NCBI RefSeq assembly: GCF_044324785.1
Contig: NZ_CP172127.1
Source: Escherichia coli
GTDB taxonomy: Bacteria > Pseudomonadota > Gammaproteobacteria > Enterobacterales > Enterobacteriaceae
Length of the DNA stretch: 64,000 nt
Reading direction: 5' to 3' (one strand)
The notes beneath the pieces were generated by a model. It was not told the DNA's origin. It saw only the letters and a list, made by a program, of their open reading frames with translations, and ran no database searches. Positions 1,824-57,340 of the stretch are shown here, in pieces. Position 1 is the first letter of the stretch. Each line of letters begins with the position of its first letter. Both the position numbers and the translations under genes were made by a program.

Positions 1824-1873
1824 ACGGACCGTCCCCTCGCCCCTCTGGGGAGAGGGTTAGGGTGAGGGGAACA
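1824..1873. repeat. GC-rich imperfect-palindromic intergenic repeat (boxC-like), copy 1
   Basis: acggaccgtcccctcgcccctctggggagagggttagggtgaggggaaca; near-identical to the copy at 15217..15266; lies between convergent ypfG and tktB. Confidence 0.5.
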
Positions 1874-1894: not shown

Positions 1895-3898
1895 TCAGGC
1901 ACCTTTCACTCCCAGCACCTTATGCGCTTTTGCCACAATATTCTCGGCGGTAAAGCCAAAGAACGGGAACAGCTTATCCGCCGGAGCAGATTCCCCATAA
2001 CCTGTCATCCCGACAATTGCCCCTTTCAGGCCAACATATTTGTACCAGTAATCGGCAATACCCGCTTCCACCGCCACGCGAGCCGCAACGTTAGAAGGCA
2101 ACACCGACTCGCGATATTCCTCATCCTGGGCGTCGAAAATATCGGTCGAGGGCAGGGAAACTACGCGTACATTGCGACCTTCTCCCGCTAATTTCTCTGC
2201 CGCTTGCAGGGTGATTTCCATCTCTGAACCGGTGGCAATCAAAATAATATCCGGCTTGCCGCCGCTGTCTTTCAACACATAACCACCACGAGCAATCTCT
2301 TTAACCTGATCCGGCGTACGTTCCACCTGGGCCAGATTCTGCCTGGAGAGGATCAGTGCCGTCGGTCCGTTGTGGCGCTCAACCGCCAGCTTCCAGCCCA
2401 CCGCTGCTTCCACCTGATCGCACGGTCGCCAGGTGCTGAAATTTGGCGTTAAGCGCAGACTGGCCAGTTGCTCAACAGCCTGGTGCGTAGGACCATCTTC
2501 GCCCAGACCAATTGAGTCGTGGGTATAAACCATAATCTGCCGCGCTTTCATCAGTGCCGCCATCCGCGCGGCGTTACGGGCGTATTCAACAAACATCAGG
2601 AACGTCGCGGTATACGGTACAAATCCACCGTGGTGCGCGATGCCATTGGCGATAGCGGTCATACCAAATTCACGCACCCCGTAGTGAATATAGTTGCCCG
2701 CCGGATCTTCCTTCAGCGACACAGAACCTTTCCAGATGGTGAGGTTGCTGGGAGCCAGATCCGCCGAACCGCCGAGCAGCTCCGGTAGCATCGGCCCGTA
2801 AGCGTTAAGCGTATTTTGCGAAGCCTTACGGGTAGCGATTTTCGCCGGATTTGCCTGTAACTCATTGATATATTTCTGAGTCGTTTTCTCCCAGTCCTTC
2901 GGTAAACCACCGCTCATCCGACGGGTAAACTCTTCTGCCAGTTGCGGATGGGCCTTTTTGTAGGCTGCATACTTCTCATTCCAGCTCTGCTGCGCTTTTT
3001 CGCCTTTTTCGCGGGCATCCCAGGCGTGATAAATCTCTTTAGGGATTTCAAATGGCGGATGGTGCCAGCCCAGTTTTTGCCGTGCCAGCGCCACTTCTTC
3101 TTCCCCCAGCGGTGCGCCATGCGCCTCTTCCTTACCTGCTTTATTCGGCGATCCAAAGCCAATCACTGTACGACAGATAATCAGCGACGGCTTATCTTTC
3201 ACGCTTTGCGCTTCAAGGATCGCTTCCTTCACCGCCTGCGGATCGTGACCGTCGATCTCGTGGATCACATGCCAGTGATAGGCTTCAAAACGTTTTGCTG
3301 TATCGTCGGTAAACCAGCCTTCGGTTTCACCGTCGATGGAAATACCGTTGTGATCGTAAAAACCAATCAGCTTGCCCAGTCCCAGCGTGCCCGCCAGCGA
3401 ACAGACTTCGTGGGAAATACCTTCCATCAGGCAACCGTCGCCCATAAACACATAGGTGAAGTGATCGACAATTTCATGATCCGGCTGGTTAAACTGCGCC
3501 GCCAGTGTACGCTCTGCTATCGCCAGCCCGACGGCGTTCGCCAAACCTTGTCCAAGTGGACCGGTGGTGGTTTCAACACCTGGCGTATAACCAATCTCCG
3601 GGTGACCTGGGGTTTTTGAATGCAACTGACGGAAGTTCTTCAGCTCTTCCAGCGGCAGGTCGTAACCGGTCAGATGCAGCAAACTGTAGAGCAGCATCGA
3701 CGCGTGGCCGTTGGAAAGAATAAAGCGGTCGCGATCATACCAGGTTGGGTCGGTGGGGTTATGTTTAAGAAAATCGTTCCACAGCACTTCGGCAATATCA
3801 GCCATGCCCATCGGCGCGCCGGGATGACCAGAATTGGCTTTTTGTACCGCATCCATACTGAGTGCGCGAATCGCATTGGCAAGGTCTTTTCGGGACAT
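1895..3898 (-). CDS. tktB: transketolase 2
   Basis: Translation [40 protein letters not shown]... with TPP-binding motifs; 667 aa from the internal Met of ORF 1895..3961. Confidence 0.9.
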
Positions 3899-13196: not shown

Positions 13197-14033
13197 ATGG
13201 CGCACGACGAACAATGGCTCACCCCTCGACTGCAAACGGCGGCAACGCTGTGTAACCAGACGCCCGCCGCGACGGAATCTCCGCTGTGGCTGGGGGTGGA
13301 TCTGGGCACCTGCGATGTGGTGTCGATGGTTGTCGACTGCGACGGTCAGCCGGTGGCGGTATGTCTCGACTGGGCCGATGTGGTCCGCGACGGCATCGTC
13401 TGGGATTTCTTCGGTGCGGTCACCATTGTTCGTCGCCATCTCGACACCCTCGAGCAGCAATTCGGTCGCCGTTTTAGCCATGCGGCGACCTCTTTTCCTC
13501 CAGGTACGGATCCGCGTATTTCCATCAACGTGCTGGAGTCTGCCGGGCTGGAAGTGAGCCATGTGCTGGATGAGCCAACCGCAGTCGCGGATCTGCTGCA
13601 ACTGGACAACGCCGGTGTAGTGGATATCGGCGGCGGCACCACCGGCATTGCCATCGTGAAAAAGGGCAAGGTGACTTACTCGGCAGATGAAGCCACCGGC
13701 GGACATCATATCTCTCTGACTCTCGCCGGAAATCGCCGTATTTCGCTGGAAGAGGCGGAGCAGTACAAGCGCGGTCACGGTGAAGAGATTTGGCCTGCGG
13801 TGAAACCGGTGTACGAAAAAATGGCGGACATTGTCGCCCGGCATATTGAAGGGCAGGGCATTACTGATTTATGGCTGGCGGGCGGCTCTTGTATGCAACC
13901 GGGCGTGGCGGAACTGTTTCGCAAACAATTCCCGGCGTTACAGGTGCATTTACCGCAGCACAGTTTGTTTATGACCCCGCTGGCGATCGCCAGTAGCGGG
14001 CGAGAGAAAGCGGAGGGGCTATATGCAAAATGA
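13197..14033 (+). CDS. eutJ: ethanolamine utilisation chaperone-like protein (Hsp70/actin fold)
   Basis: 278 aa with DLGTCDVV and DIGGGTTGIAIV motifs. Confidence 0.85.
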   Translation: MAHDEQWLTPRLQTAATLCNQTPAATESPLWLGVDLGTCDVVSMVVDCDGQPVAVCLDWADVVRDGIVWDFFGAVTIVRRHLDTLEQQFGRRFSHAATSFPPGTDPRISINVLESAGLEVSHVLDEPTAVADLLQLDNAGVVDIGGGTTGIAIVKKGKVTYSADEATGGHHISLTLAGNRRISLEEAEQYKRGHGEEIWPAVKPVYEKMADIVARHIEGQGITDLWLAGGSCMQPGVAELFRKQFPALQVHLPQHSLFMTPLAIASSGREKAEGLYAK

Positions 14034-15210
14034 ATTGCAGACCGCGCTCTTTCAGGCGTTCGATACCCTGAATCTGCAACGGGTAAAAACATTTAGCGTT
14101 CCACCGGTGACGCTTTGCGGTCCGGGCGCGATGAGCAGTTGCGGGCAGCAAGCGCAAACGCGTGGGCTGAAACATCTGTTCGTGATGGCAGACAGCTTTT
14201 TGCATCAGGCGGGGATGACCGCCGGGCTGACGCGTAGCCTGGCCGTTAAAGGTATCGCCATGACGCTCTGGCCATGTCCGGTGGGCGAACCGTGCATCAC
14301 CGACGTGTGTGCAGCCGTGGCGCAGTTGCGTGAATCAGGTTGTGACGGGGTGATCGCGTTTGGCGGCGGCTCGGTGCTGGATGCGGCGAAAGCCGTGGCG
14401 TTGCTGGTGACAAACCCGGATAGCACGCTGGCAGAAATGTCAGAAACCAGCGTTCTGCAACCGCGCCTGCCGTTGATTGCCATTCCAACGACCGCCGGAA
14501 CCGGCTCTGAAACCACCAACGTAACGGTGATTATCGACGCGGTGAGCGAGCGCAAGCAGGTGTTAGCCCATGCCTCGCTGATGCCGGATGTGGCGATTCT
14601 TGACGCCGCATTGACCGAAGGTGTGCCGTCGCATGTCACGGCGATGACCGGTATCGACGCGTTAACTCATGCCATTGAAGCGTACAGCGCGCTGAACGCC
14701 ACACCGTTTACCGACAGTCTGGCGATTGGCGCTATTGCGATGATTGGCAAATCGCTGCCGAAAGCGGTGGGCTACGGTCACGACCTTGCCGCGCGCGAGA
14801 GCATGTTGCTGGCTTCATGTATGGCGGGAATGGCGTTTTCCAGTGCGGGGCTTGGGTTATGCCACGCGATGGCGCATCAGCCGGGGGCGGCGCTGCATAT
14901 TCCGCACGGTCTGGCGAACGCCATGCTACTGCCAACGGTGATGGAGTTTAACCGGATGGTCTGTCGTGATCGGTTTAGTCAGATTGGTCGGGCGCTGACA
15001 AACAAGAAAACTGACGAGCGCGAGGTAATTAGCGTGATAAGCGAGCTGATTGCGGAAGTTGGGATCAACAAGCGGCTGGCTGATGTGGGCGCAACCACCG
15101 GACATTACCGCGCATGGGCGCAGGCCGCGATGGAAGATATTTGTCTGCGCAGCAACCCGCGTACCGCCAGCCTGGAGCAGATTATTGGTCTGTATGCTGC
15201 GGCGCAATAA
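14023..15210 (+). CDS. eutG: iron-containing alcohol dehydrogenase of the eut pathway
   Basis: 395 aa, Fe-ADH family (GGGSVLDAAKAVA motif); overlaps the eutJ end. Confidence 0.85.
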   Translation: MQNELQTALFQAFDTLNLQRVKTFSVPPVTLCGPGAMSSCGQQAQTRGLKHLFVMADSFLHQAGMTAGLTRSLAVKGIAMTLWPCPVGEPCITDVCAAVAQLRESGCDGVIAFGGGSVLDAAKAVALLVTNPDSTLAEMSETSVLQPRLPLIAIPTTAGTGSETTNVTVIIDAVSERKQVLAHASLMPDVAILDAALTEGVPSHVTAMTGIDALTHAIEAYSALNATPFTDSLAIGAIAMIGKSLPKAVGYGHDLAARESMLLASCMAGMAFSSAGLGLCHAMAHQPGAALHIPHGLANAMLLPTVMEFNRMVCRDRFSQIGRALTNKKTDEREVISVISELIAEVGINKRLADVGATTGHYRAWAQAAMEDICLRSNPRTASLEQIIGLYAAAQ

Positions 15211-15216
15211 AAGTGT

Positions 15217-15328
15217 ACGGACAGTCCCCTCGCCCCTTTGGGGAGAGGGTTAGGGTGAGGGGAACAGAGTCGCGCCGGTGCAAACAATTACCCTCACCCC
15301 GGCCCCTCGGCTTCCAGAGTGAGGGAAA
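15217..15328. repeat. GC-rich imperfect-palindromic intergenic repeat (boxC-like), copy 2, with an extended inverted arm
   Basis: acggacagtcccctcgcccctttggggagagggttagggtgaggggaaca, then ccctcaccccggcccctcgg...gagtgaggg; sits in the 169-bp eutG-eutH gap inside the operon. Confidence 0.5.
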
Positions 15329-15379
15329 AACCCACTTTCAGCATTGGCAATAAATAACAACTAACAGGGAGTAAAGGTG

Positions 15380-16606
15380 ATGGGAATTAACGAAATCATC
15401 ATGTACATCATGATGTTCTTTATGCTGATAGCTGCCGTAGACAGGATCCTGTCGCAGTTCGGTGGTTCTGCTCGTTTCCTCGGTAAGTTCGGTAAAAGTA
15501 TCGAAGGATCAGGCGGTCAGTTCGAAGAAGGCTTTATGGCAATGGGCGCACTGGGCCTGGCGATGGTTGGTATGACCGCGCTGGCACCGGTACTGGCCCA
15601 CGTACTCGGGCCGGTGATTATCCCGGTTTACGAAATGCTCGGCGCAAACCCGTCAATGTTCGCCGGAACACTGCTGGCGTGCGATATGGGCGGCTTCTTC
15701 CTCGCCAAAGAGCTGGCGGGCGGCGACGTAGCAGCGTGGCTATACTCTGGGTTAATTCTCGGGTCGATGATGGGGCCAACGATTGTGTTTTCCATTCCGG
15801 TGGCGCTCGGCATTATCGAACCTTCTGACCGTCGTTATCTGGCGCTCGGCGTGCTGGCGGGCATTGTGACCATTCCAATTGGTTGTATCGCCGGTGGCCT
15901 GGTGGCTATGTACTCCGGTGTACAGATCAACGGCCAGCCGGTGGAATTCACCTTTGCGCTTATCCTGATGAACATGATCCCGGTACTTATCGTCGCGGTA
16001 CTGGTGGCGCTGGGGCTGAAATTCATCCCGGAAAAAATGATCAACGGCTTCCAGATCTTCGCCAAATTCCTCGTTGCATTGATCACCCTCGGTCTTGCTG
16101 CCGCGGTAGTGAAATTCCTGCTTGGCTGGGAACTGATCCCCGGTCTGGATCCTATCTTTATGGCCCCTGGCGATAAACCCGGTGAAGTGATGCGCGCCAT
16201 TGAAGTTATCGGTTCTATCTCCTGCGTTCTGTTAGGGGCGTACCCGATGGTACTGCTGCTGACTCGCTGGTTTGAAAAACCGCTGATGAGCGTCGGTAAG
16301 GTGCTGAATATGAACAATATCGCGGCAGCTGGCATGGTGGCAACGCTTGCCAACAACATCCCAATGTTTGGCATGATGAAGCTGATGGATACCCGCGGCA
16401 AAGTCATCAACTGCGCCTTCGCCGTTTCCGCTGCTTTCGCCCTGGGTGACCACTTAGGCTTCGCCGCTGCCAACATGAACGCCATGATTTTCCCGATGAT
16501 TGTCGGCAAATTGATCGGCGGCGTAACGGCGATTGGCGTGGCGATGATGCTGGTGCCAAAAGAAGACGCGACCGCGGCTAAAACCGAAGCGGAGGCACAA
16601 TCGTGA
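15380..16606 (+). CDS. eutH: ethanolamine permease/facilitator
   Basis: 408-aa polytopic membrane protein MGINEIIMYIMMFFMLIAAVDRIL... Confidence 0.85.
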   Translation: MGINEIIMYIMMFFMLIAAVDRILSQFGGSARFLGKFGKSIEGSGGQFEEGFMAMGALGLAMVGMTALAPVLAHVLGPVIIPVYEMLGANPSMFAGTLLACDMGGFFLAKELAGGDVAAWLYSGLILGSMMGPTIVFSIPVALGIIEPSDRRYLALGVLAGIVTIPIGCIAGGLVAMYSGVQINGQPVEFTFALILMNMIPVLIVAVLVALGLKFIPEKMINGFQIFAKFLVALITLGLAAAVVKFLLGWELIPGLDPIFMAPGDKPGEVMRAIEVIGSISCVLLGAYPMVLLLTRWFEKPLMSVGKVLNMNNIAAAGMVATLANNIPMFGMMKLMDTRGKVINCAFAVSAAFALGDHLGFAAANMNAMIFPMIVGKLIGGVTAIGVAMMLVPKEDATAAKTEAEAQS

Positions 16607-18006
16607 ACACTCGCCAGCTACTGAGCGTCGGTATCGATATCGGCACCACCACCACCCAGGTGATCTTCTCCCACCTGGAACTGGTTAACCGTGCGGCGGT
16701 GTCGCAGGTGCCGCGCTACGAATTCATCAAACGCGAAATTAGCTGGCAAAGCCCGGTGTTCTTTACCCCTGTCGATAAACAGGGTGGTTTAAAAGAAGCG
16801 GAACTGAAATCGCTGATTTTAGAGCAATATCAGGCTGCGGGCATTGCGCCGGAAAGCGTTGATTCTGGTGCCATCATCATCACCGGTGAAAGCGCGAAAA
16901 CCCGCAACGCTCGCCCGGCGGTGATGACGCTCTCCCAGTCGCTGGGCGATTTTGTCGTCGCCAGCGCCGGGCCGCATCTCGAATCCGTGATCGCCGGTCA
17001 CGGTGCCGGGGCGCAAACCCTTTCTGAACAACGGCTGTGTCGGGTACTGAATATCGACATCGGCGGTGGCACCGCGAACTACGCCCTGTTCGATGCCGGA
17101 AAAATCAGCGGCACTGCCTGCCTCAACGTTGGCGGTCGCCTGCTGGAAACCGACAGCCAGGGGCGCGTGGTTTACGCTCATATACCGGGGCAGATGATTG
17201 TGGATGAGTGCTTCGGTGCAGGCACTGACGCCCGTTCGCTGACCGGCACGCAGTTGGTGCAGGTTACCCGGCGGATGGCAGAACTGATTGTCGAAGTGAT
17301 TGACGGAACGCTCTCGCCGCTCGCGCAGGCATTGATGCAAACCGGTTTGTTGCCCGCAGGTGTTACGCCCGAAATCATTACGCTTTCTGGCGGCGTGGGC
17401 GAATGTTATCGCCACCAGCCCGCCGACCCGTTCTGTTTTGCCGATATCGGCCCGCTTCTGGCAACGGCGCTGCATGACCATCAGCGCCTGCGTGAGATGA
17501 ACGTGCAGTTTCCAGCGCAAACCGTGCGCGCCACGGTGATTGGCGCGGGCGCACATACCCTTTCGCTCTCTGGCAGCACAATCTGGCTGGAGGGCGTACA
17601 ACTGCCGCTGCGCAATTTGCCGGTGGCGATCCCAATTGATGAAACGGATCTGGTGAGTGCCTGGCAACAGGCGCTGATTCAGCTGGATCTTTGCCCCAAA
17701 ACTGACGCGTACGTGCTGGCGCTTCCCGCCTCGCTGCCTGTGCGTTACGCCGCGGTACTGACGGTCATCAACGCGCTGGTCGATTTCGTCGCGCGTTTTC
17801 CGAATCCGCATCCCCTGCTGGTGGTGGCCGGGCAGGACTTTGGTAAAGCTCTGGGCATGTTGTTGCGCCCACAGCTACAACAACTCCCGTTGGCAGTCAT
17901 TGACGAAGTGATTGTCCGCGCGGGGGACTATATCGACATTGGTACGCCTCTTTTTGGCGGATCGGTTGTGCCGGTGACGGTGAAATCACTCGCATTTCCT
18001 TCCTGA
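16603..18006 (+). CDS. eutA: ethanolamine ammonia-lyase reactivase
   Basis: 467-aa ORF with GTG start overlapping the eutH stop; operon position. Confidence 0.85.
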   Translation: MNTRQLLSVGIDIGTTTTQVIFSHLELVNRAAVSQVPRYEFIKREISWQSPVFFTPVDKQGGLKEAELKSLILEQYQAAGIAPESVDSGAIIITGESAKTRNARPAVMTLSQSLGDFVVASAGPHLESVIAGHGAGAQTLSEQRLCRVLNIDIGGGTANYALFDAGKISGTACLNVGGRLLETDSQGRVVYAHIPGQMIVDECFGAGTDARSLTGTQLVQVTRRMAELIVEVIDGTLSPLAQALMQTGLLPAGVTPEIITLSGGVGECYRHQPADPFCFADIGPLLATALHDHQRLREMNVQFPAQTVRATVIGAGAHTLSLSGSTIWLEGVQLPLRNLPVAIPIDETDLVSAWQQALIQLDLCPKTDAYVLALPASLPVRYAAVLTVINALVDFVARFPNPHPLLVVAGQDFGKALGMLLRPQLQQLPLAVIDEVIVRAGDYIDIGTPLFGGSVVPVTVKSLAFPS

Positions 18007-18017
18007 GGGAACGACTT

Positions 18018-19379
18018 ATGAAACTAAAGACCACATTGTTCGGCAATGTATATCAGTTTAAGGATGTAAAAGAGGTGCTGGCTAAAGCCAACGAACTGCG
18101 TTCGGGGGATGTGCTGGCGGGCGTTGCAGCGGCAAGCTCACAAGAGCGCGTGGCGGCAAAGCAGGTGTTGTCGGAAATGACCGTAGCGGACATCCGCAAT
18201 AATCCGGTGATTGCCTATGAAGATGACTGCGTGACGCGGCTGATTCAGGACGACGTTAACGAAACGGCCTACAACCAGATTAAAAACTGGAGCATCAGCG
18301 AACTGCGTGAGTATGTGCTGAGCGATGAAACCAGCGTGGACGACATTGCCTTTACCCGCAAAGGGCTGACCTCGGAAGTGGTCGCGGCGGTAGCGAAGAT
18401 TTGCTCCAACGCGGACCTGATCTACGGCGCGAAGAAAATGCCGGTAATCAAAAAGGCCAATACCACCATCGGTATTCCGGGCACCTTTAGCGCCCGTTTG
18501 CAGCCAAATGACACCCGTGACGACGTGCAAAGTATCGCCGCGCAAATCTACGAAGGGCTTTCCTTCGGGGTGGGCGATGCGGTGATCGGCGTTAACCCGG
18601 TGACTGACGATGTGGAAAACTTAAGCCGCGTGTTGGACACCATTTACGGCGTGATCGACAAATTCAACATTCCGACCCAGGGCTGCGTGCTGGCGCACGT
18701 CACCACCCAGATTGAAGCGATCCGTCGTGGCGCACCAGGCGGGCTGATTTTCCAGAGTATCTGCGGCAGCGAAAAAGGGCTGAAAGAATTTGGCGTGGAG
18801 CTGGCGATGCTCGATGAAGCACGCGCAGTGGGCGCGGAGTTCAACCGTATCGCCGGGGAAAACTGCCTCTACTTCGAAACCGGACAAGGCTCTGCGCTGT
18901 CCGCTGGCGCTAACTTCGGCGCAGACCAGGTGACGATGGAAGCACGTAACTATGGGCTGGCGCGTCATTACGATCCGTTTATCGTCAACACCGTGGTCGG
19001 CTTTATTGGGCCGGAGTATCTCTACAACGACCGCCAGATTATCCGTGCGGGCTTAGAAGATCACTTTATGGGTAAGCTGAGCGGCATCTCTATGGGCTGT
19101 GACTGCTGCTACACCAACCACGCTGACGCTGACCAGAACCTCAACGAAAACCTCATGATCCTGCTCGCCACCGCAGGCTGCAACTACATCATGGGGATGC
19201 CGCTGGGTGATGACATCATGCTCAACTACCAGACCACCGCCTTCCACGATACTGCCACTGTGCGTCAGTTACTCAACCTGCGCCCGTCACCGGAGTTTGA
19301 ACGCTGGCTGGAAAGCATGGGCATTATGGCAAACGGTCGCCTGACCAAACGGGCGGGCGATCCGTCACTGTTCTTCTGA
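18018..19379 (+). CDS. eutB: ethanolamine ammonia-lyase large subunit
   Basis: 453 aa MKLKTTLFGNVYQFKDVKEVLAKANELRSGD... Confidence 0.9.
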   Translation: MKLKTTLFGNVYQFKDVKEVLAKANELRSGDVLAGVAAASSQERVAAKQVLSEMTVADIRNNPVIAYEDDCVTRLIQDDVNETAYNQIKNWSISELREYVLSDETSVDDIAFTRKGLTSEVVAAVAKICSNADLIYGAKKMPVIKKANTTIGIPGTFSARLQPNDTRDDVQSIAAQIYEGLSFGVGDAVIGVNPVTDDVENLSRVLDTIYGVIDKFNIPTQGCVLAHVTTQIEAIRRGAPGGLIFQSICGSEKGLKEFGVELAMLDEARAVGAEFNRIAGENCLYFETGQGSALSAGANFGADQVTMEARNYGLARHYDPFIVNTVVGFIGPEYLYNDRQIIRAGLEDHFMGKLSGISMGCDCCYTNHADADQNLNENLMILLATAGCNYIMGMPLGDDIMLNYQTTAFHDTATVRQLLNLRPSPEFERWLESMGIMANGRLTKRAGDPSLFF

Positions 19380-19399
19380 TGACGCGGAGATAACACATC

Positions 19400-20284
19400 A
19401 TGGATCAAAAACAGATTGAAGAAATTGTACGCAGCGTGATGGCGTCAATGGGACAAGCGGCCCCCGCGCCGTCAGAAGCAAAGTGCGCCACCACCTATGC
19501 GGCACCGGTGACCTCGGAAAGCTGCGCGCTGGATTTAGGCTCTGCGGAAGCAAAAGCGTGGATTGGCGTTGAAAACCCGCATCGCGCAGACGTATTAACA
19601 GAACTGCGTCGCAGCACCGTGGCCCGCGTTTGTACCGGTCGTGCCGGTCCGCGTCCGCGTACCCAGGCGTTGCTGCGTTTCCTGGCCGATCACTCTCGTT
19701 CGAAAGATACCGTACTGAAAGAAGTGCCGGAAGAGTGGGTGAAAGCGCAGGGCTTGCTGGAAGTCCGCTCTGAAATTAGCGACAAAAATCTCTACCTGAC
19801 TCGTCCGGATATGGGCCGCCGCCTGTGTGCAGAAGCTGTTGAAGCGCTGAAAGCACAGTGTGTTGCTAATCCGGACGTGCAGGTCGTTATTTCTGATGGC
19901 CTGTCAACTGATGCGATCACCGTGAACTACGAAGAGATCCTGCCGCCGCTGATGGCGGGCCTGAAACAGGCCGGGCTGAAAGTCGGTACACCATTCTTTG
20001 TTCGTTATGGTCGCGTGAAGATTGAAGATCAGATCGGTGAGATCCTCGGCGCGAAAGTGGTGATCCTGCTGGTGGGGGAACGCCCGGGATTAGGGCAGTC
20101 AGAAAGCCTCTCCTGCTACGCCGTTTACTCGCCGCGTATGGCAACCACCGTTGAGGCCGATCGCACCTGCATCTCTAACATTCACCAGGGCGGCACGCCG
20201 CCGGTTGAAGCCGCAGCCGTCATTGTGGATTTGGCGAAACGTATGCTGGAGCAGAAAGCATCCGGCATCAACATGACCCGATAA
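19400..20284 (+). CDS. eutC: ethanolamine ammonia-lyase small subunit
   Basis: 294 aa [18 protein letters not shown]...; follows eutB. Confidence 0.9.
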
Positions 20285-20293
20285 GGAGGCATC

Positions 20294-20953
20294 ATGCCAG
20301 CTTTAGATTTGATTCGACCGTCGGTAACCGCCATGCGGGTGATTGCCTCCGTTAACGCCGAATTTGCGCGTGAACTGAAATTGCCGCCGCATATTCGTAG
20401 CCTCGGGCTGATTTCTGCTGATTCCGATGACGTCACCTACATTGCGGCTGACGAAGCGACCAAGCAGGCGATGGTGGAAGTGGTGTATGGACGCTCGCTG
20501 TATGCGGGAGCCGCACACGGCCCGTCACCGACTGCCGGTGAAGTGCTGATTATGCTTGGTGGGCCAAACCCGGCGGAAGTGCGTGCTGGTCTGGATGCGA
20601 TGGTTGCGCATATTGAAAATGGCGCGGCTTTCCAGTGGGCTAATGACGCAGAAAACACAGCCTTCCTGGCACATGTAGTTTCGCGTACCGGTTCTTATCT
20701 CTCATCAACCGCCGGGATCACGCTTGGCGATCCGATGGCGTATCTGGTGGCACCGCCGCTGGAAGCGACCTATGGCATTGATGCAGCCCTGAAATCTGCC
20801 GACGTGCAACTGGTGACCTACGTACCGCCGCCGTCTGAAACCAACTACTCGGCAGCATTTTTAACCGGTAGCCAGGCCGCGTGTAAAGCAGCCTGTAACG
20901 CCTTTACCGATGCAGTGCTGGAAATCGCGCGTAATCCAATCCAGCGTGCGTAA
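20294..20953 (+). CDS. eutL: BMC-T tandem-domain microcompartment shell protein
   Basis: 219 aa [57 protein letters not shown]... Confidence 0.9.
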
Positions 20954-20965
20954 CGGAGGTTGCCG

Positions 20966-21466
20966 ATGATCAATGCACTGGGATTGCTGGAAGTGGACGG
21001 CATGGTCGCCGCGATAGATGCTGCGGATGCCATGCTCAAAGCAGCTAACGTTCGTCTGCTCAGTCACGAAGTGCTTGACCCTGGTCGCCTAACGCTGGTG
21101 GTGGAAGGCGATCTGGCGGCGTGTCGTGCGGCGCTGGACGCAGGTTGTGCTGCCGCGATGCGTACCGGGCGTGTCATCAGCCGTAAGGAGATCGGTCGGC
21201 CAGACGATGACACCCAGTGGCTGGTTACTGGCTTTAACCGCCAGCCGAAGCAACCCGTAAAGGAACCCGACGCGCCAGTTATCGTCGCGGAATCTGCTGA
21301 CGAGTTGTTGGCGCTGTTAACATCAGTACGTCAGGGAATGACGGCAGGAGAAGTGGCTGCCCACTTTGGCTGGCCGCTGGAAAAAGCCAGAAATGCGCTC
21401 GAACAGCTCTTTTCTGCCGGGACGTTACGTAAACGCAGTAGTCGTTATCGTCTCAAGCCCCATTAA
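20966..21466 (+). CDS. eutK: BMC-H shell protein with C-terminal extension
   Basis: 166 aa from ATG at 20966 (MINALGLLEVDGMVAAIDAADAMLKAANV...), GGAGG 7 nt upstream; track ORF starts 6 nt earlier at a TTG. Confidence 0.85.
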   Translation: MINALGLLEVDGMVAAIDAADAMLKAANVRLLSHEVLDPGRLTLVVEGDLAACRAALDAGCAAAMRTGRVISRKEIGRPDDDTQWLVTGFNRQPKQPVKEPDAPVIVAESADELLALLTSVRQGMTAGEVAAHFGWPLEKARNALEQLFSAGTLRKRSSRYRLKPH

Positions 21467-21511
21467 CCTGTCGGAGGTGCCGGGTGTCCTACAACACCCG
21501 GCATTAACATC

Positions 21512-22564
21512 ATGAAAAAGACCCGTACAGCCAATTTGCACCATCTTTATCATGAACCCTTACCCGAAAACCTGAAGCTCACGCCGAAGGTCGAAGTGGA
21601 TAATGTTCATCAACGACAGACAACGGATGTCTATGAACATGCTTTGACAATTACCGCCTGGCAGCAGATTTACGATCAGCTGCATCCGGGCAAGTTTCAT
21701 GGTGAATTTACGGAAATTCTACTCGATGATATTCAGGTTTTTCGTGAATACACCGGTCTGGCGCTGCGTCAGTCGTGCCTGGTCTGGCCGAACTCGTTCT
21801 GGTTTGGCATTCCGGCGACGCGCGGTGAGCAGGGATTTATCGGTTCGCAATGTCTGGGAAGTGCAGAAATAGCCACGCGGCCTGGCGGCACTGAGTTTGA
21901 ATTGAGTACGCCGGACGATTACACCATCCTTGGCGTGGTGCTTTCTGAAGATGTCATTACCCGGCAGGCTAACTTTTTGCATAACCCGGAGCGGGTGTTG
22001 CATATGTTGCGTCACCAGTCGGCGCTGGAAGTGAAAGAGCAGCATAAAGCCGCGCTGTGGGGCTTTGTCCAACAGGCGCTGGCGACGTTTTGCGAGAACC
22101 CGGAAAATCTCCATCAGCCTGCAGTGCGAAAAGTGTTGGGGGATAATTTGCTCATGGCGATGGGGGCGATGCTGGAAGAAGCGCAACCAATGGTGACGGC
22201 GGAAAGCATCAGTCATCAGAGTTACCGTAGATTACTTTCCCGCGCCCGTGAATATGTGCTGGAAAATATGTCTGAGCCGGTGACGGTGCTGGACTTGTGT
22301 AATCAACTGCATGTCAGTCGCCGCACGCTACAAAACGCGTTTCACGCTATTTTAGGCATTGGCCCGAACGCGTGGCTGAAACGCATTCGCCTGAACGCCG
22401 TACGCCGCGAACTGATAAGCCCGTGGTCGCAAAGCACAACGGTAAAAGACGCCGCCATGCAGTGGGGATTCTGGCATCTGGGGCAATTCGCCACGGATTA
22501 CCAGCAGCTGTTTGCCGAGAAGCCGTCACTGACGCTGCATCAGCGGATGCGGGAATGGGGGTGA
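21512..22564 (+). CDS. eutR: AraC-family transcriptional activator of the eut operon
   Basis: 350 aa, C-terminal AraC-type HTH; last gene of the operon. Confidence 0.85.
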
Positions 22565-22569
22565 GGGAG

Positions 22570-23472
<903 letters not shown>

Positions 23473-24342
23473 TTACCGCTTTCTCGAGTGTGCTTTCTGG
23501 TTGTCAAACCAGTGAAAATAACTGATCACGCCTTCGGCAATCGCTGTGGCGATTTTCTGGCGAAATGCTGCCGTGCCTAACAGCCGCTCTTCTTCCGGGT
23601 TGGTGATAAACGAGGTTTCCACCAGCACCGAAGGAACCGACGGCGATTTCAACACCACAAACGCGGCTTGTTCGGTGTTGCGGCTGTGCAGTTTATGCAC
23701 CGGCTTAATCTTTTTCAGAATATGCGAGCCGAGCGTCAGGCTGTTTTTAATAGTATCGGTTTGCACCAGATCAAACAGCACTTGCTGCAATAGGTGATCC
23801 TTGTCAGTCGCCTTTTTACCGGCAACTTCATCGGCGCGGTTTTCGCGTTCAGACAGGTATTTCGCCATTGCGCTACTTGCCCCACGGTTAGAGAGGGCAA
23901 ATACCGAAGCACCGGCAGCTTTCGGGTTGGTAAAGCCGTCGGCATGAATTGACATAAACAGATCTGCGCCATGTTTATGGGCGATTTCAACGCGATCGTA
24001 AAGTGGGATAAACGTATCGCCAGAACGCGTTAAACGCGCATCAATCCCATGATTACGCAAAATGGAACGGACGTTTTTAGCAATCGCCAGCACCACATGT
24101 TTTTCTTTCGAACCGTTGCGCCCGATCGCTCCGGTATCAATCCCGCCGTGGCCTGGATCGAGAACAACGACACGTTTGCCGCCAGATTTTTTGGCTTTCG
24201 GCTTGCTGTGTCCGTTGCTGGTTTTTAAAGGTTCGTCTTTGGCGATGGCTTGCGACATTCCTGACAACGTCAGCGCTGCAAGTCCTGCTTTCAGCACCTG
24301 GCGGCGCGAAGTGAGTGTTTTTAGTGGTTTAAAAGTGCTCAT
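23473..24342 (-). CDS. amiA: N-acetylmuramoyl-L-alanine amidase A (Tat-exported)
   Basis: 289 aa with twin-arginine signal (SRRQVLKAGLAAL); immediately upstream of hemF. Confidence 0.9.
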   Translation of the reverse strand: MSTFKPLKTLTSRRQVLKAGLAALTLSGMSQAIAKDEPLKTSNGHSKPKAKKSGGKRVVVLDPGHGGIDTGAIGRNGSKEKHVVLAIAKNVRSILRNHGIDARLTRSGDTFIPLYDRVEIAHKHGADLFMSIHADGFTNPKAAGASVFALSNRGASSAMAKYLSERENRADEVAGKKATDKDHLLQQVLFDLVQTDTIKNSLTLGSHILKKIKPVHKLHSRNTEQAAFVVLKSPSVPSVLVETSFITNPEEERLLGTAAFRQKIATAIAEGVISYFHWFDNQKAHSRKR

Positions 24343-24555
24343 ACGGCCTGAGTTGTAATAATAAAGTTCCAGATGTTATATCGTATCGCGTAATCCGTTA
24401 CGACCGTTTGCTGTTGAGAATTGTTTTACTTTTCATTTCAATAGTTGACAACTCCCCATTATGCCACTTTTTCAACCGATTTTCGTCAGATATTGGCTAA
24501 TTCGACCGTTCACGCCATAATCAGCCTTTTAACCCGCAAAAAGGTAACGAATACC

Positions 24556-24981
24556 ATGGAGATACGCGTATTTCGCCAGGAAGATTTCGAAGAGGTCATC
24601 ACCCTTTGGGAGCGTTGCGACTTGCTGCGTCCGTGGAACGATCCGGAAATGGACATCGAGCGTAAGATGAACCATGACGTCAGTTTGTTTCTGGTCGCTG
24701 AGGTGAACGGTGAAGTGGTCGGAACGGTGATGGGCGGTTATGACGGGCATCGCGGGTCTGCTTATTATCTTGGCGTGCATCCAGAGTTTCGTGGGCGTGG
24801 GATTGCTAATGCGTTGCTTAATCGGCTGGAGAAAAAGCTGATTGCTCGCGGCTGCCCGAAAATTCAGATCAACGTGCCGGAAGATAACGACATGGTGCTC
24901 GGAATGTATGAACGCCTGGGATATGAACACGCCGACGTGCTGAGTCTGGGTAAGCGTTTGATTGAAGATGAAGAGTACTGA
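24556..24981 (+). CDS. ypeA: GNAT-family N-acetyltransferase
   Basis: 141 aa from ATG at 24556 ([23 protein letters not shown]...); GNAT motifs. Confidence 0.8.
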
Positions 24982-25417
24982 GTTTCATCCTGTCCATTAT
25001 GATGCGCACGGTCGCCTGCGTTTACCCTTGCTCTTCTGGCTTGTGCTATTGCTTCAGGCGCGAACCTGGGTGCTGTTTGTCATTGCCGGTGCGTCGCGCG
25101 AGCAGGGTACTGCGCTGCTAAATCTGTTTTATCCCGATCACGATAACTTCTGGCTGGGGTTGATTCCCGGCATTCCGGCGGTGCTGGCGTTTTTGCTGAG
25201 TGGTCGGCGGGCTTCATTTCCCCGTATCTGGCATGTGCTCTATTTTCTGTTGCTGTTGGCGCAAGTGGTTTTACTTTGCTGGCAACCGTGGCTGTGGCTG
25301 AACGGTGAATCCGTTAGCGGTATCGGTCTGGCGCTGGTAGTGGCGGATATTGTGGCGTTAATCTGGCTGCTGACCAATCGACGTTTACGCGCTTGTTTTA
25401 ATGAAGAAAAAGAATAA
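24968..25417 (+). CDS. yfeZ: inner-membrane protein YfeZ
   Basis: 149 aa hydrophobic protein [26 protein letters not shown]...; start could be 6 nt upstream (24962). Confidence 0.7.
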
Positions 25418-25477
25418 CGGCACTTTTTGGTGAATTTGCACTCCAAGCAACGTTATTGAATAACCAAAGGAAGTGAC

Positions 25478-26053
25478 ATGAAATCGCTGCGTTTAATGTT
25501 ATGCGCTATGCCGTTGATGCTGACCGGCTGTTCCACGATGTCGTCAGTTAACTGGTCTGCCGCTAACCCGTGGAACTGGTTTGGGTCGTCCACCAAAGTG
25601 AGCGAGCAGGGCGTTGGTGAATTAACGGCGTCCACACCACTGCAAGAACAAGCCATTGCTGATGCGCTTGATGGCGATTATCGCCTGCGCAGCGGAATGA
25701 AAACCGCGAACGGCAACGTGGTGCGCTTTTTTGAAGTGATGAAAGGCGACAACGTGGCGATGGTGATTAACGGTGATCAAGGCACGATCAGCCGCATTGA
25801 TGTGCTGGATAGCGATATTCCTGCTGACACCGGTGTTAAAATCGGTACACCGTTTAGCGACCTTTACAGCAAAGCATTTGGCAATTGCCAAAAAGCTGAT
25901 GGTGATGATAATCGTGCCGTCGAATGTAAAGCCGAAGGCAGTCAACATATTAGCTACCAGTTCAGCGGGGAATGGAGTGGTCCTGAAGGGTTAATGCCTT
26001 CGGACGATACCCTGAAAAACTGGAAAGTCAGTAAAATTATCTGGCGGCGTTAA
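25478..26053 (+). CDS. yfeY: lipoprotein YfeY
   Basis: 191 aa with lipoprotein signal peptide ending LTGC. Confidence 0.8.
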   Translation: MKSLRLMLCAMPLMLTGCSTMSSVNWSAANPWNWFGSSTKVSEQGVGELTASTPLQEQAIADALDGDYRLRSGMKTANGNVVRFFEVMKGDNVAMVINGDQGTISRIDVLDSDIPADTGVKIGTPFSDLYSKAFGNCQKADGDDNRAVECKAEGSQHISYQFSGEWSGPEGLMPSDDTLKNWKVSKIIWRR

Positions 26054-48712: not shown

Positions 48713-48788
48713 TGGTGGGTCGTGCAGGATTCGAACCTGCGACCAATTGATTAAAAGTCAACTGCTCTACCAACTGAGCTAACGACCC
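48713..48788 (-). tRNA. lysV: tRNA-Lys (anticodon UUU)
   Basis: Reverse complement reads GGGTCGTTAGCTCAGTTGGTAGAGCAGTTGACTTTTAATCAATTGGTCGCAGGTTCGAATCCTGCACGACCCACCA. Confidence 0.95.
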
Positions 48789-48792
48789 GAAG

Positions 48793-48868
48793 TGGTGGGT
48801 GATGACGGGATCGAACCGCCGACCCCCTCCTTGTAAGGGAGGTGCTCTCCCAGCTGAGCTAATCACCC
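48793..48868 (-). tRNA. valY: tRNA-Val (anticodon UAC)
   Basis: Reverse complement reads GGGTGATTAGCTCAGCTGGGAGAGCACCTCCCTTACAAGGAGGGGGTCGGCGGTTCGATCCCGTCATCACCCACCA. Confidence 0.95.
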
Positions 48869-48914
48869 ACTTCGGTACTTCACATTTTTACAAGAAATTT
48901 AGCTGGCGAGAAAG

Positions 48915-48990
48915 TGGTGGGTGATGACGGGATCGAACCGCCGACCCCCTCCTTGTAAGGGAGGTGCTCTCCCAGCTGAGCTAATCACCC
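48915..48990 (-). tRNA. valX: tRNA-Val (anticodon UAC)
   Basis: Identical 76-nt sequence to the preceding tRNA-Val. Confidence 0.95.
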
Positions 48991-49034
48991 ACTTCTCAAT
49001 TTCTTGCTACACGGCGGAGACTACATAAAGTAGT

Positions 49035-49110
49035 TGGTGGGTGATGACGGGATCGAACCGCCGACCCCCTCCTTGTAAGGGAGGTGCTCTCCCAGCTGAG
49101 CTAATCACCC
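49035..49110 (-). tRNA. valU: tRNA-Val (anticodon UAC)
   Basis: Identical 76-nt sequence; first gene of the four-tRNA operon. Confidence 0.95.
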
Positions 49111-51808: not shown

Positions 51809-51884
<76 letters not shown>

Positions 51885-51923
51885 AATTTTGCACCCAGCA
51901 AATTTGGTACGTAAACGCATCGT

Positions 51924-51999
<76 letters not shown>

Positions 52000-57222: not shown

Positions 57223-57250
57223 TTCAACTGGCGTCGTACCAGGCATCACT

Positions 57251-57285
57251 GGCGGATGCGGCGTAAAACGCCTTATCCGCCCTAC
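57251..57285. repeat. REP element (first of a BIME pair)
   Basis: ggcggatgcggcgtaaaacgccttatccgccctac. Confidence 0.65.
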
Positions 57286-57303
57286 GCGTTAAAGAGACGG
57301 TTT

Positions 57304-57340
57304 GTAGGCCCGATAAGACGCACTAGCGTCGCATCAGGCC
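57304..57340. repeat. REP element (second, inverted orientation)
   Basis: gtaggcccgataagacgcactagcgtcgcatcaggcc. Confidence 0.65.

Follow-up and report, generated by a model that had tools for sequence, protein, structure and literature searches.

Both copies of a GC-rich palindromic repeat in the window, i.e. the whole 64,000-nucleotide stretch of Escherichia coli DNA analysed here, are members of BoxC, a family of short non-coding repeats dispersed over the chromosomes of E. coli and its relatives. Judged by sequence, the copy between eutG and eutH has the usual layout of a BoxC composite, though its type B arm is decaying, and the copy between ypfG and tktB is a solo type A unit. The two are probably best seen as a structure-prone repeat that replaces a REP cluster, has no dedicated role in the eut operon and is neutral to function. 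The finding is already known in kind, BoxC being a long-known small dispersed repeat of E. coli; what is new, and minor, is that one copy lies inside an operon, that it stands in for a BIME at identical junctions and that the BoxC alleles of both loci are in the minority. The repeat is said to feature in Bergler et al. 1992 and in the surveys of Bachellier et al.

The 50-nt BoxC unit, ACGGACNGTCCCCTCGCCCCTYTGGGGAGAGGGTTAGGGTGAGGGGAACA, is present at 1824-1873 and 15217-15266, in both cases on the + strand, and the two copies are identical at 48 of 50 positions. An earlier note on this DNA had described a near-identical pair of about 50 bp at these places, in agreement with a window-wide nhmmer profile of the unit, which finds just these two sites (E 1e-18 and 9e-18). 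The 23-nt G-rich core of the unit, GGGGAGAGGGTTAGGGTGAGGGG, occurs exactly twice in the 64 kb, with 0 occurrences expected from 100 dinucleotide-preserving shuffles of the window. BoxC palindromic repeats, PIT elements (Hoyne and Maher 2000, 2002) and TMECO are the same sequence (Holder et al. 2015, PMC4666352), with the TMECO consensus 5'-CCCTCNCCC N3-6 GGGNGAGGG N3 GGGNGAGGG [G/T/C/-]-3' (PMC4666352) and 23 copies tabulated for MG1655 (PMC4666352, Table 1). A regular expression of the published consensus matches at 1834-1869 and 15227-15262, both on the + strand. The core at 15227-15262 (+) reads CCCTCGCCC-CTTTG-GGGAGAGGG-TTA-GGGTGAGGG-G and equals TMECO #7, #11 and #15 of MG1655 over 36/36 positions; the core at 1834-1869 equals #9, #16, #19 and #22 (36/36 each). 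Since the cores are identical to published members, both window copies belong to BoxC, and the guess of the earlier note at a boxC-like family proves right.

The 50-nt unit has 78,268 places among complete E. coli genomes, 5,425 of 5,426 of which contain it, as expected of the dispersed family that had been proposed; the number per genome lies between 1 and 29, the median being 16, and published copy counts for K-12 are 22-33. Just 34 of the 78,268 places are on plasmids. Most matches in a plasmid collection cover only part of the unit, and several of the top ones fall in records of Mb size, which are probably chromosomes. Only three phage records match the unit, all partially. The Campylobacter phages A18a and A11a (MG065686.1, MG065691.1) have 47-nt matches of 93.6% identity at three places per record, unexpected for phages of Campylobacter and perhaps due to contamination or to some G-rich repeat unrelated to BoxC. 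The TMECO motif has no association with mobile elements, and the family shows neither orientation nor operon bias (PMC4666352). In the RefSeq record of MG1655, no repeat is annotated at either window locus, nor at a known BoxC locus. That the window copies resemble each other by chance or stem from a local duplication without any family, as the presence of merely two copies in the window might suggest, has practically no probability left and was rejected on the shuffle expectation, the number of places and the exact identity to published members.

The eutG-eutH spacer is 169 nt long, between the eutG stop ending at 15210 (eutG 14023-15210, +; NCBIfam EutG, 869 bits) and the eutH ATG at 15380 (eutH 15380-16606, +; NCBIfam EutH, 869 bits; ATG following the annotation of strain N3), and the family matches of the flanking genes bear out the earlier placement of the second copy in this spacer. 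At 15378 the window possesses a lineage-specific C-to-T SNP (GCG to GTG), which creates an in-frame GTG at 15377, one codon 5' of the eutH ATG, and sits between the Shine-Dalgarno sequence and the start codon. The composite begins with a BoxC unit of type A with one mismatched triplet ('A mm'; 15217-15266, +; consensus regex, nhmmer E 1.3e-18), continues with a conserved linker (15267-15289) that aligns with the linkers at cca-bacA, gcvP-ygfF and sstT-alx and has a near-palindromic centre GCGCCGGTGC (15272-15281; consensus at the other loci GCACCGGTGC), and then contains an inverted, decayed type B unit (15290-15325, -), the minus strand of which reads CCCTCACTCTGGAAGCCGAGGGGCCGGGGTGAGGGT. The B unit is identical to TMECO #10, an intact B unit, at 26 of 36 positions, and the regex finds no BoxC consensus match on the minus strand of 15290-15325: mutations have hit the C block and the first G block but spared the CCG loop and the second G block. 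The same 15290-15325 segment is the extra inverted arm noticed earlier, and it is indeed complementary to the G-rich blocks of the type A unit (12 nt at 92% and 11 nt at 91%). Its nature as a decayed inverted BoxC unit goes beyond the earlier note, as do the REP sites of other strains and the fact that BoxC is better known as a DNA intrastrand-triplex motif.

An A-rich tail (AAAAACC; 15326-15335), which in the alignment also terminates the composite at other loci, ends the element. Left of it, a CAATAAA at 15204-15210 (+), including the eutG stop TAA (15208-15210), forms the first copy of a 7-nt direct repeat; to the right, strain comparison reveals a REP-tail-like remnant CAGCATTGG followed by the second CAATAAA at 15348-15354 (together 15339-15354, +). 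The remnant CAGCATTGG compares with ...CGCAGCATCCGCTAATAAATAAC in E. coli strain 130 and ...CGCATCCGCCAATAAATAAC in K-12. Three other E. coli loci matched by a query with the spacer were aligned, and the composites of cca-bacA, gcvP-ygfF and sstT-alx all consist of type A unit, linker centred on GCACCGGTGC, inverted type B unit and A-rich tail; the gcvP-ygfF and sstT-alx composites are the K-12 pairs #10+11 and #12+13. Inverted A+B is the rule for paired copies (PMC4666352).

The solo unit (type A mm; 1824-1873, core 1834-1869, +; regex and nhmmer) lies between the convergent 3' ends of ypfG (749-1792, +; collinear with K-12 ypfG, name from the K-12 annotation) and tktB (1895-3898, -; NCBIfam transketolase, stop at 1895, 5' end set by collinearity with the K-12 CDS), and both window copies are accordingly intergenic. 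A REP-head-like half site CCCAGATGCGC to its left (1800-1810, +) is suggested by sequence and fold; it pairs with 1877-1888 in the predicted fold of the ypfG-tktB spacer, where a REP-tail-like half site CAGCATCCGGCG (+) is shared with the K-12 REP allele in a pairwise alignment. The half sites CCCAGATGCGC and CAGCATCCGGCG flank the solo BoxC unit as if it lay inside a former REP hairpin, an arrangement that could be due to chance.

The 23 copies of K-12 include neither window locus: the corresponding MG1655 spacers are at 2.568 and 2.582 Mb, and the nearest TMECO positions in Table 1 at 1.35 and 3.05 Mb. The survey of Holder et al. (PMC4666352) covers 63 TMECO loci, and the accessible part of its supplement does not mention the locus names eutG, eutH, tktB or ypfG. 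Of 5,426 E. coli genomes, about 303 have the BoxC allele of eutG-eutH and 832 that of ypfG-tktB. In other E. coli strains the eutG-eutH spacer contains 1, 2 or 5 BIME units and measures 99-515 nt; the ypfG-tktB spacer of K-12 contains REPs according to pairwise alignment. Save for short tail-like remnants, both window spacers lack the PU consensus (GCCGGATGCGGCG...CTTATCCGGCCTAC) in alternating orientation, which K-12 and other strains have in the corresponding alleles. BoxC and REP alleles of eutG-eutH have the same boundaries, on the left GCGCAATAAA (including the TAA stop) and on the right CAATAAATAACAACTAACAGGGAG, and the CAATAAA direct repeat flanks both kinds of allele alike. Because the REP alleles carry identical flanks, the repeat is not attributable to BoxC insertion. 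In a minority of E. coli lineages, BoxC occupies the same-junction spacers that hold REP/BIME in most E. coli.

Four strains with eutG 3' ends that differ by up to 49 of 300 nt share one BoxC spacer (100% identity) between eutG and eutH, and this identity on differing eutG backgrounds argues for a single BoxC origin at this site. We infer that REP is the older state in Escherichia, a direction given by parsimony over a small outgroup sample, and that a single event put the BoxC composite in the place of a BIME; the composite, already or soon decayed, would then have spread by descent and recombination. The 3' end of eutG in the window is a mosaic patch (14926-15198) with 49 mismatches per 300 nt against other E. 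coli, which stops 12 nt before the stop codon; outside it, eutG is about 96-97% identical to K-12. No close donor of the patch was found among 50 species representatives, the best being Escherichia sp. MOD1-EC7003 with 86%, and strain MSB1_3B has an intermediate eutG mosaic. Arrival of the tract 14926-15198 together with BoxC was considered and rejected, as three other strains with the BoxC allele have a K-12-like eutG end. Downstream, the eut operon of the window is uninterrupted (17999-18461 against 18757-25557 in the K-12 locus) and lacks the cryptic prophage CPZ-55, which in K-12 is inserted between eutA and eutB.

In a scan of species representatives with EutH, 50 loci were fetched and the eutG-eutH spacer was extracted from 48; BoxC is present in none of these 48. 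REPs occupy the spacer in the other Escherichia species sampled, several Citrobacter, Pseudocitrobacter and Salmonella. Several Citrobacter possess an empty spacer of 27 nt, which aligns with the reconstructed empty site of Escherichia, and the spacers of Morganella and Hafnia are short. The composite allele of cca-bacA is present in 1,260 of 5,426 E. coli genomes; in a comparison of this spacer in three E. coli strains (L007, L063, L064) it alternates with alleles that are REP/BIME throughout and carry one to three REPs. At sstT-alx, an internal deletion in strain N39 (L066) collapses the composite into a perfect hairpin CCCCTCGCCCCTTTTGGGGAGAGGG, and in strain 7CC (L065) the composite has given way to some 300 nt of unrelated, GC-rich inserted sequence. 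Collapse to a hairpin is the 'palindrome effect' described by Holder et al. (PMC4666352).

At all three polymorphic loci for which an alternative allele was recovered (eutG-eutH, ypfG-tktB and cca-bacA), the strains without BoxC have REP/BIME in the same spacer. In 1997, Bachellier et al. reportedly noted that boxC had inserted in BIME regions. That BoxC spreads by targeting REP/BIME sites, or by replacing them through recombination, is a quite unlikely generalisation, suggested by the identical eutG-eutH junctions and the REP-like remnants around both window copies. If true, it would be a first handle on the movement of BoxC, which would then be linked either with the REP/RAYT system or with a route of structure-dependent insertion common to both. 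Elsewhere in the window, the minus strand of 57250-57339 is 77% similar to the K-12 eutG-eutH REP/BIME spacer and is probably another REP/BIME.

Folded as RNA of the eut sense strand, the 123-nt composite has a predicted energy of -50.4 kcal/mol, with a main helix between 15241-15262 and 15290-15309, and the potential for a long stem-loop in the mRNA that had been put forward earlier is thereby supported. The solo unit folds with -27.4 kcal/mol by pairing its C block with the distal G block via G-U wobble. Against composition-matched shuffles, RNA and DNA folds reach z-scores of -1.3 to -1.9 (composite about -1.6), unexceptional values because any sequence made of G runs and C runs folds well; statistics of predicted fold energy neither support nor refute a function. 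The predicted composite hairpin starts 16 nt past the eutG stop codon and is followed by AAAAACCCAC, without a U-tract. Terminator and promoter scans detect nothing inside the eutG-eutH or ypfG-tktB spacer, the only scan matches nearby being a small hairpin within eutH. Rfam at the gathering threshold yields only tRNAs in the whole window, and at E<1 two chance-level matches in the eutG-eutH spacer (18 bits against cut-offs of 40 and 71). The tRNAs are arranged in two clusters, four genes at 48716-49110 (-) and two at 51809-51996 (+). The motif GGGGAGAGGGTTAGGGTGAGGGG, at 15240-15262 and 1847-1869 (+), is also a canonical four-tract G-quadruplex motif, in the eut copy on the mRNA sense strand; G4 and hairpin would be competing RNA folds of GGGGAGAGGGTTAGGGTGAGGGG, and purine-motif triplexes are reported not to form in RNA.

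The BoxC composite would be transcribed within the polycistronic eut mRNA and could form a long imperfect hairpin that lacks a U-tract; by analogy with REPs, it might at most, like any stable 3' hairpin, present a modest barrier to 3'-exonucleases. A stronger version of this idea makes the spacer an RNA cis element, in which the hairpin shields the eutS-eutG mRNA from 3'-to-5' exonucleases and sets the ratio of proximal to distal operon expression, BoxC and REP being interchangeable. The length and predicted energy of the helix, the placement of BoxC on the sense strand of a transcribed spacer, and the REP/BIME in the same spacer of most sampled Enterobacteriaceae are consistent with it, and REPs are described as mRNA stabilisers and terminators (PMC3333891). 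Structure in the spacer is, however, not required, because empty (Citrobacter) or short (Morganella, Hafnia) spacers exist; moreover, the fold z-score is only -1.6, the decaying B arm and a REP copy number varying from 1 to 5 are as expected for unselected repeats, and the family lacks orientation and operon bias as well as any effect on RNA polymerase in published tests (PMC4666352). An RNA cis element is on balance unlikely.

A partial terminator or attenuator between eutG and eutH is very unlikely. A GC-rich hairpin does lie within the operon, and BIMEs, which reportedly attenuate transcription (Espeli et al. 2001), occupy the site in other strains. Yet the hairpin is followed by AAAAACCCAC instead of a U-tract, the terminator scans are empty at both spacers, and eutH, eutA, eutB, eutC, eutL, eutK and eutR, all required for the pathway, lie downstream. 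Hoyne & Maher 2002, as summarised in PMC4666352, found neither promoter nor terminator activity of PIT elements nor an effect on RNA polymerase, with other BoxC copies and in reporter contexts. In a 2024 multi-omics study of eut in mSystems, which gives protein abundances only, EutB and EutC are more abundant than EutG in a K-12 derivative, and a structured repeat at this position, there in the form of the REP allele, therefore does not block downstream expression. The suggestion that the element stabilises upstream mRNA or causes partial termination is not supported, in view of the missing U-tract, the empty scans, the z-score of about -1.6 and the published nulls. On the published tests of the family, a regulatory function of the eutG-eutH BoxC is unlikely, and a local effect on the eutG/eutH ratio may exist.

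At the level of DNA, the type A unit can form a purine-motif intrastrand triplex in single-stranded DNA, shown in vitro for 'type A mm' (PMC4666352), the class to which the eutG-eutH core of the window belongs. TMECO triplexes melt at 70-82 C in vitro, and CD, NMR and a Tm of 74 C are available for the 'type A mm' oligonucleotide class (PMC4666352). DMS footprinting detected no triplex in vivo (PMC4666352). In vitro, the element blocked DNA polymerase (Hoyne & Maher 2002, as given in PMC4666352), and sequence variability around TMECO loci is above controls and average, by a mechanism that the authors leave open (PMC4666352). The unit might accordingly be kept as a triplex-, cruciform- or G4-forming DNA element, either for local recombination ('adaptive instability', Holder et al.) or for the binding of nucleoid or replication proteins. 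The in vitro triplex of the 'type A mm' class and the variability of TMECO loci relative to controls (both PMC4666352) speak for such an element, together with the polymorphism of both window loci and cca-bacA, the deletion allele of sstT-alx as a perfect hairpin, and the 275-nt eutG mosaic patch that adjoins the spacer in the window lineage. But that patch is absent from three other strains with the BoxC allele, the triplex was not detected in vivo (PMC4666352), and the variability is not specific to BoxC, because REP-bearing alleles of the eutG-eutH spacer, with 1 to 5 BIME units, vary as much. Selected instability is, in addition, hard to tell from tolerated instability, and a selected DNA-level element seems distinctly doubtful.

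We return to the reading of both copies as a structure-prone repeat in the place of a REP cluster. Transient triplexes or cruciforms at replication forks would be a plausible cause of the turnover of these spacers, and local genetic instability may be the residual effect at DNA level, as the literature and the polymorphism found here suggest. Two points weigh against neutrality: with -50 kcal/mol and a start 16 nt beyond the eutG stop, the hairpin could well affect how the mRNA decays, and nearly all sampled Enterobacteriaceae keep a structured element in the spacer, which could mean that it is selected, not tolerated. The appropriate annotation of the eutG-eutH spacer is BoxC, rather than regulator or novel RNA. 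As a recurrent landing pad (one to five REPs, BoxC, or empty), the spacer provides a natural allelic series for effects of repeats on operon polarity, and the replacement of REP by BoxC at identical junctions is a small clue to the propagation of BoxC. For biology at large the finding has little weight, as it concerns a textbook-listed repeat to which direct tests have assigned no function.

Among known systems, Rho-independent terminators share with the eutG-eutH element a GC-rich stem-loop 3' of a stop codon. In contrast to them, BoxC lacks a U-tract, is negative in terminator scans and has essential operon genes downstream. MITEs such as ERIC/IRU, RUP and Correia elements are similar in being non-coding and dispersed, with a composite of about 120 nt, a long imperfect palindrome and a 7-nt direct repeat, but here the direct repeat also flanks the REP alleles, and solo BoxC half-units are common.

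REP/PU/BIME elements are, like BoxC, short, GC-rich, palindromic intergenic repeats, occupy the identical spacers and junctions in other strains, and place a stable RNA hairpin at the 3' end of a cistron. Their sequence is unrelated, and the GCCGGATGCGGCG/CTTATCCGGCCTAC motif is absent inside the BoxC element. REPs are tied to the RAYT/TnpA-REP transposase, and it is documented that they influence transcription and the stability of mRNA, whereas BoxC lacks a demonstrated effect on expression and is not known to have a mobilising enzyme, parent IS or transposase.

BoxC/PIT/TMECO is the system that the window elements match: they have 36-nt cores identical to those of named K-12 copies, the TTA loop of type A, the 'mm' class and an intergenic site, and they share with it the chromosomal dispersal, the presence or absence from strain to strain and, in the eut copy, the layout of an A unit and a decayed inverted B unit joined by a common linker. 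They differ from it in that the window loci are outside the 23 K-12 copies, the B arm is decayed and off the consensus, and the eut copy is located inside an operon, between two co-transcribed genes.
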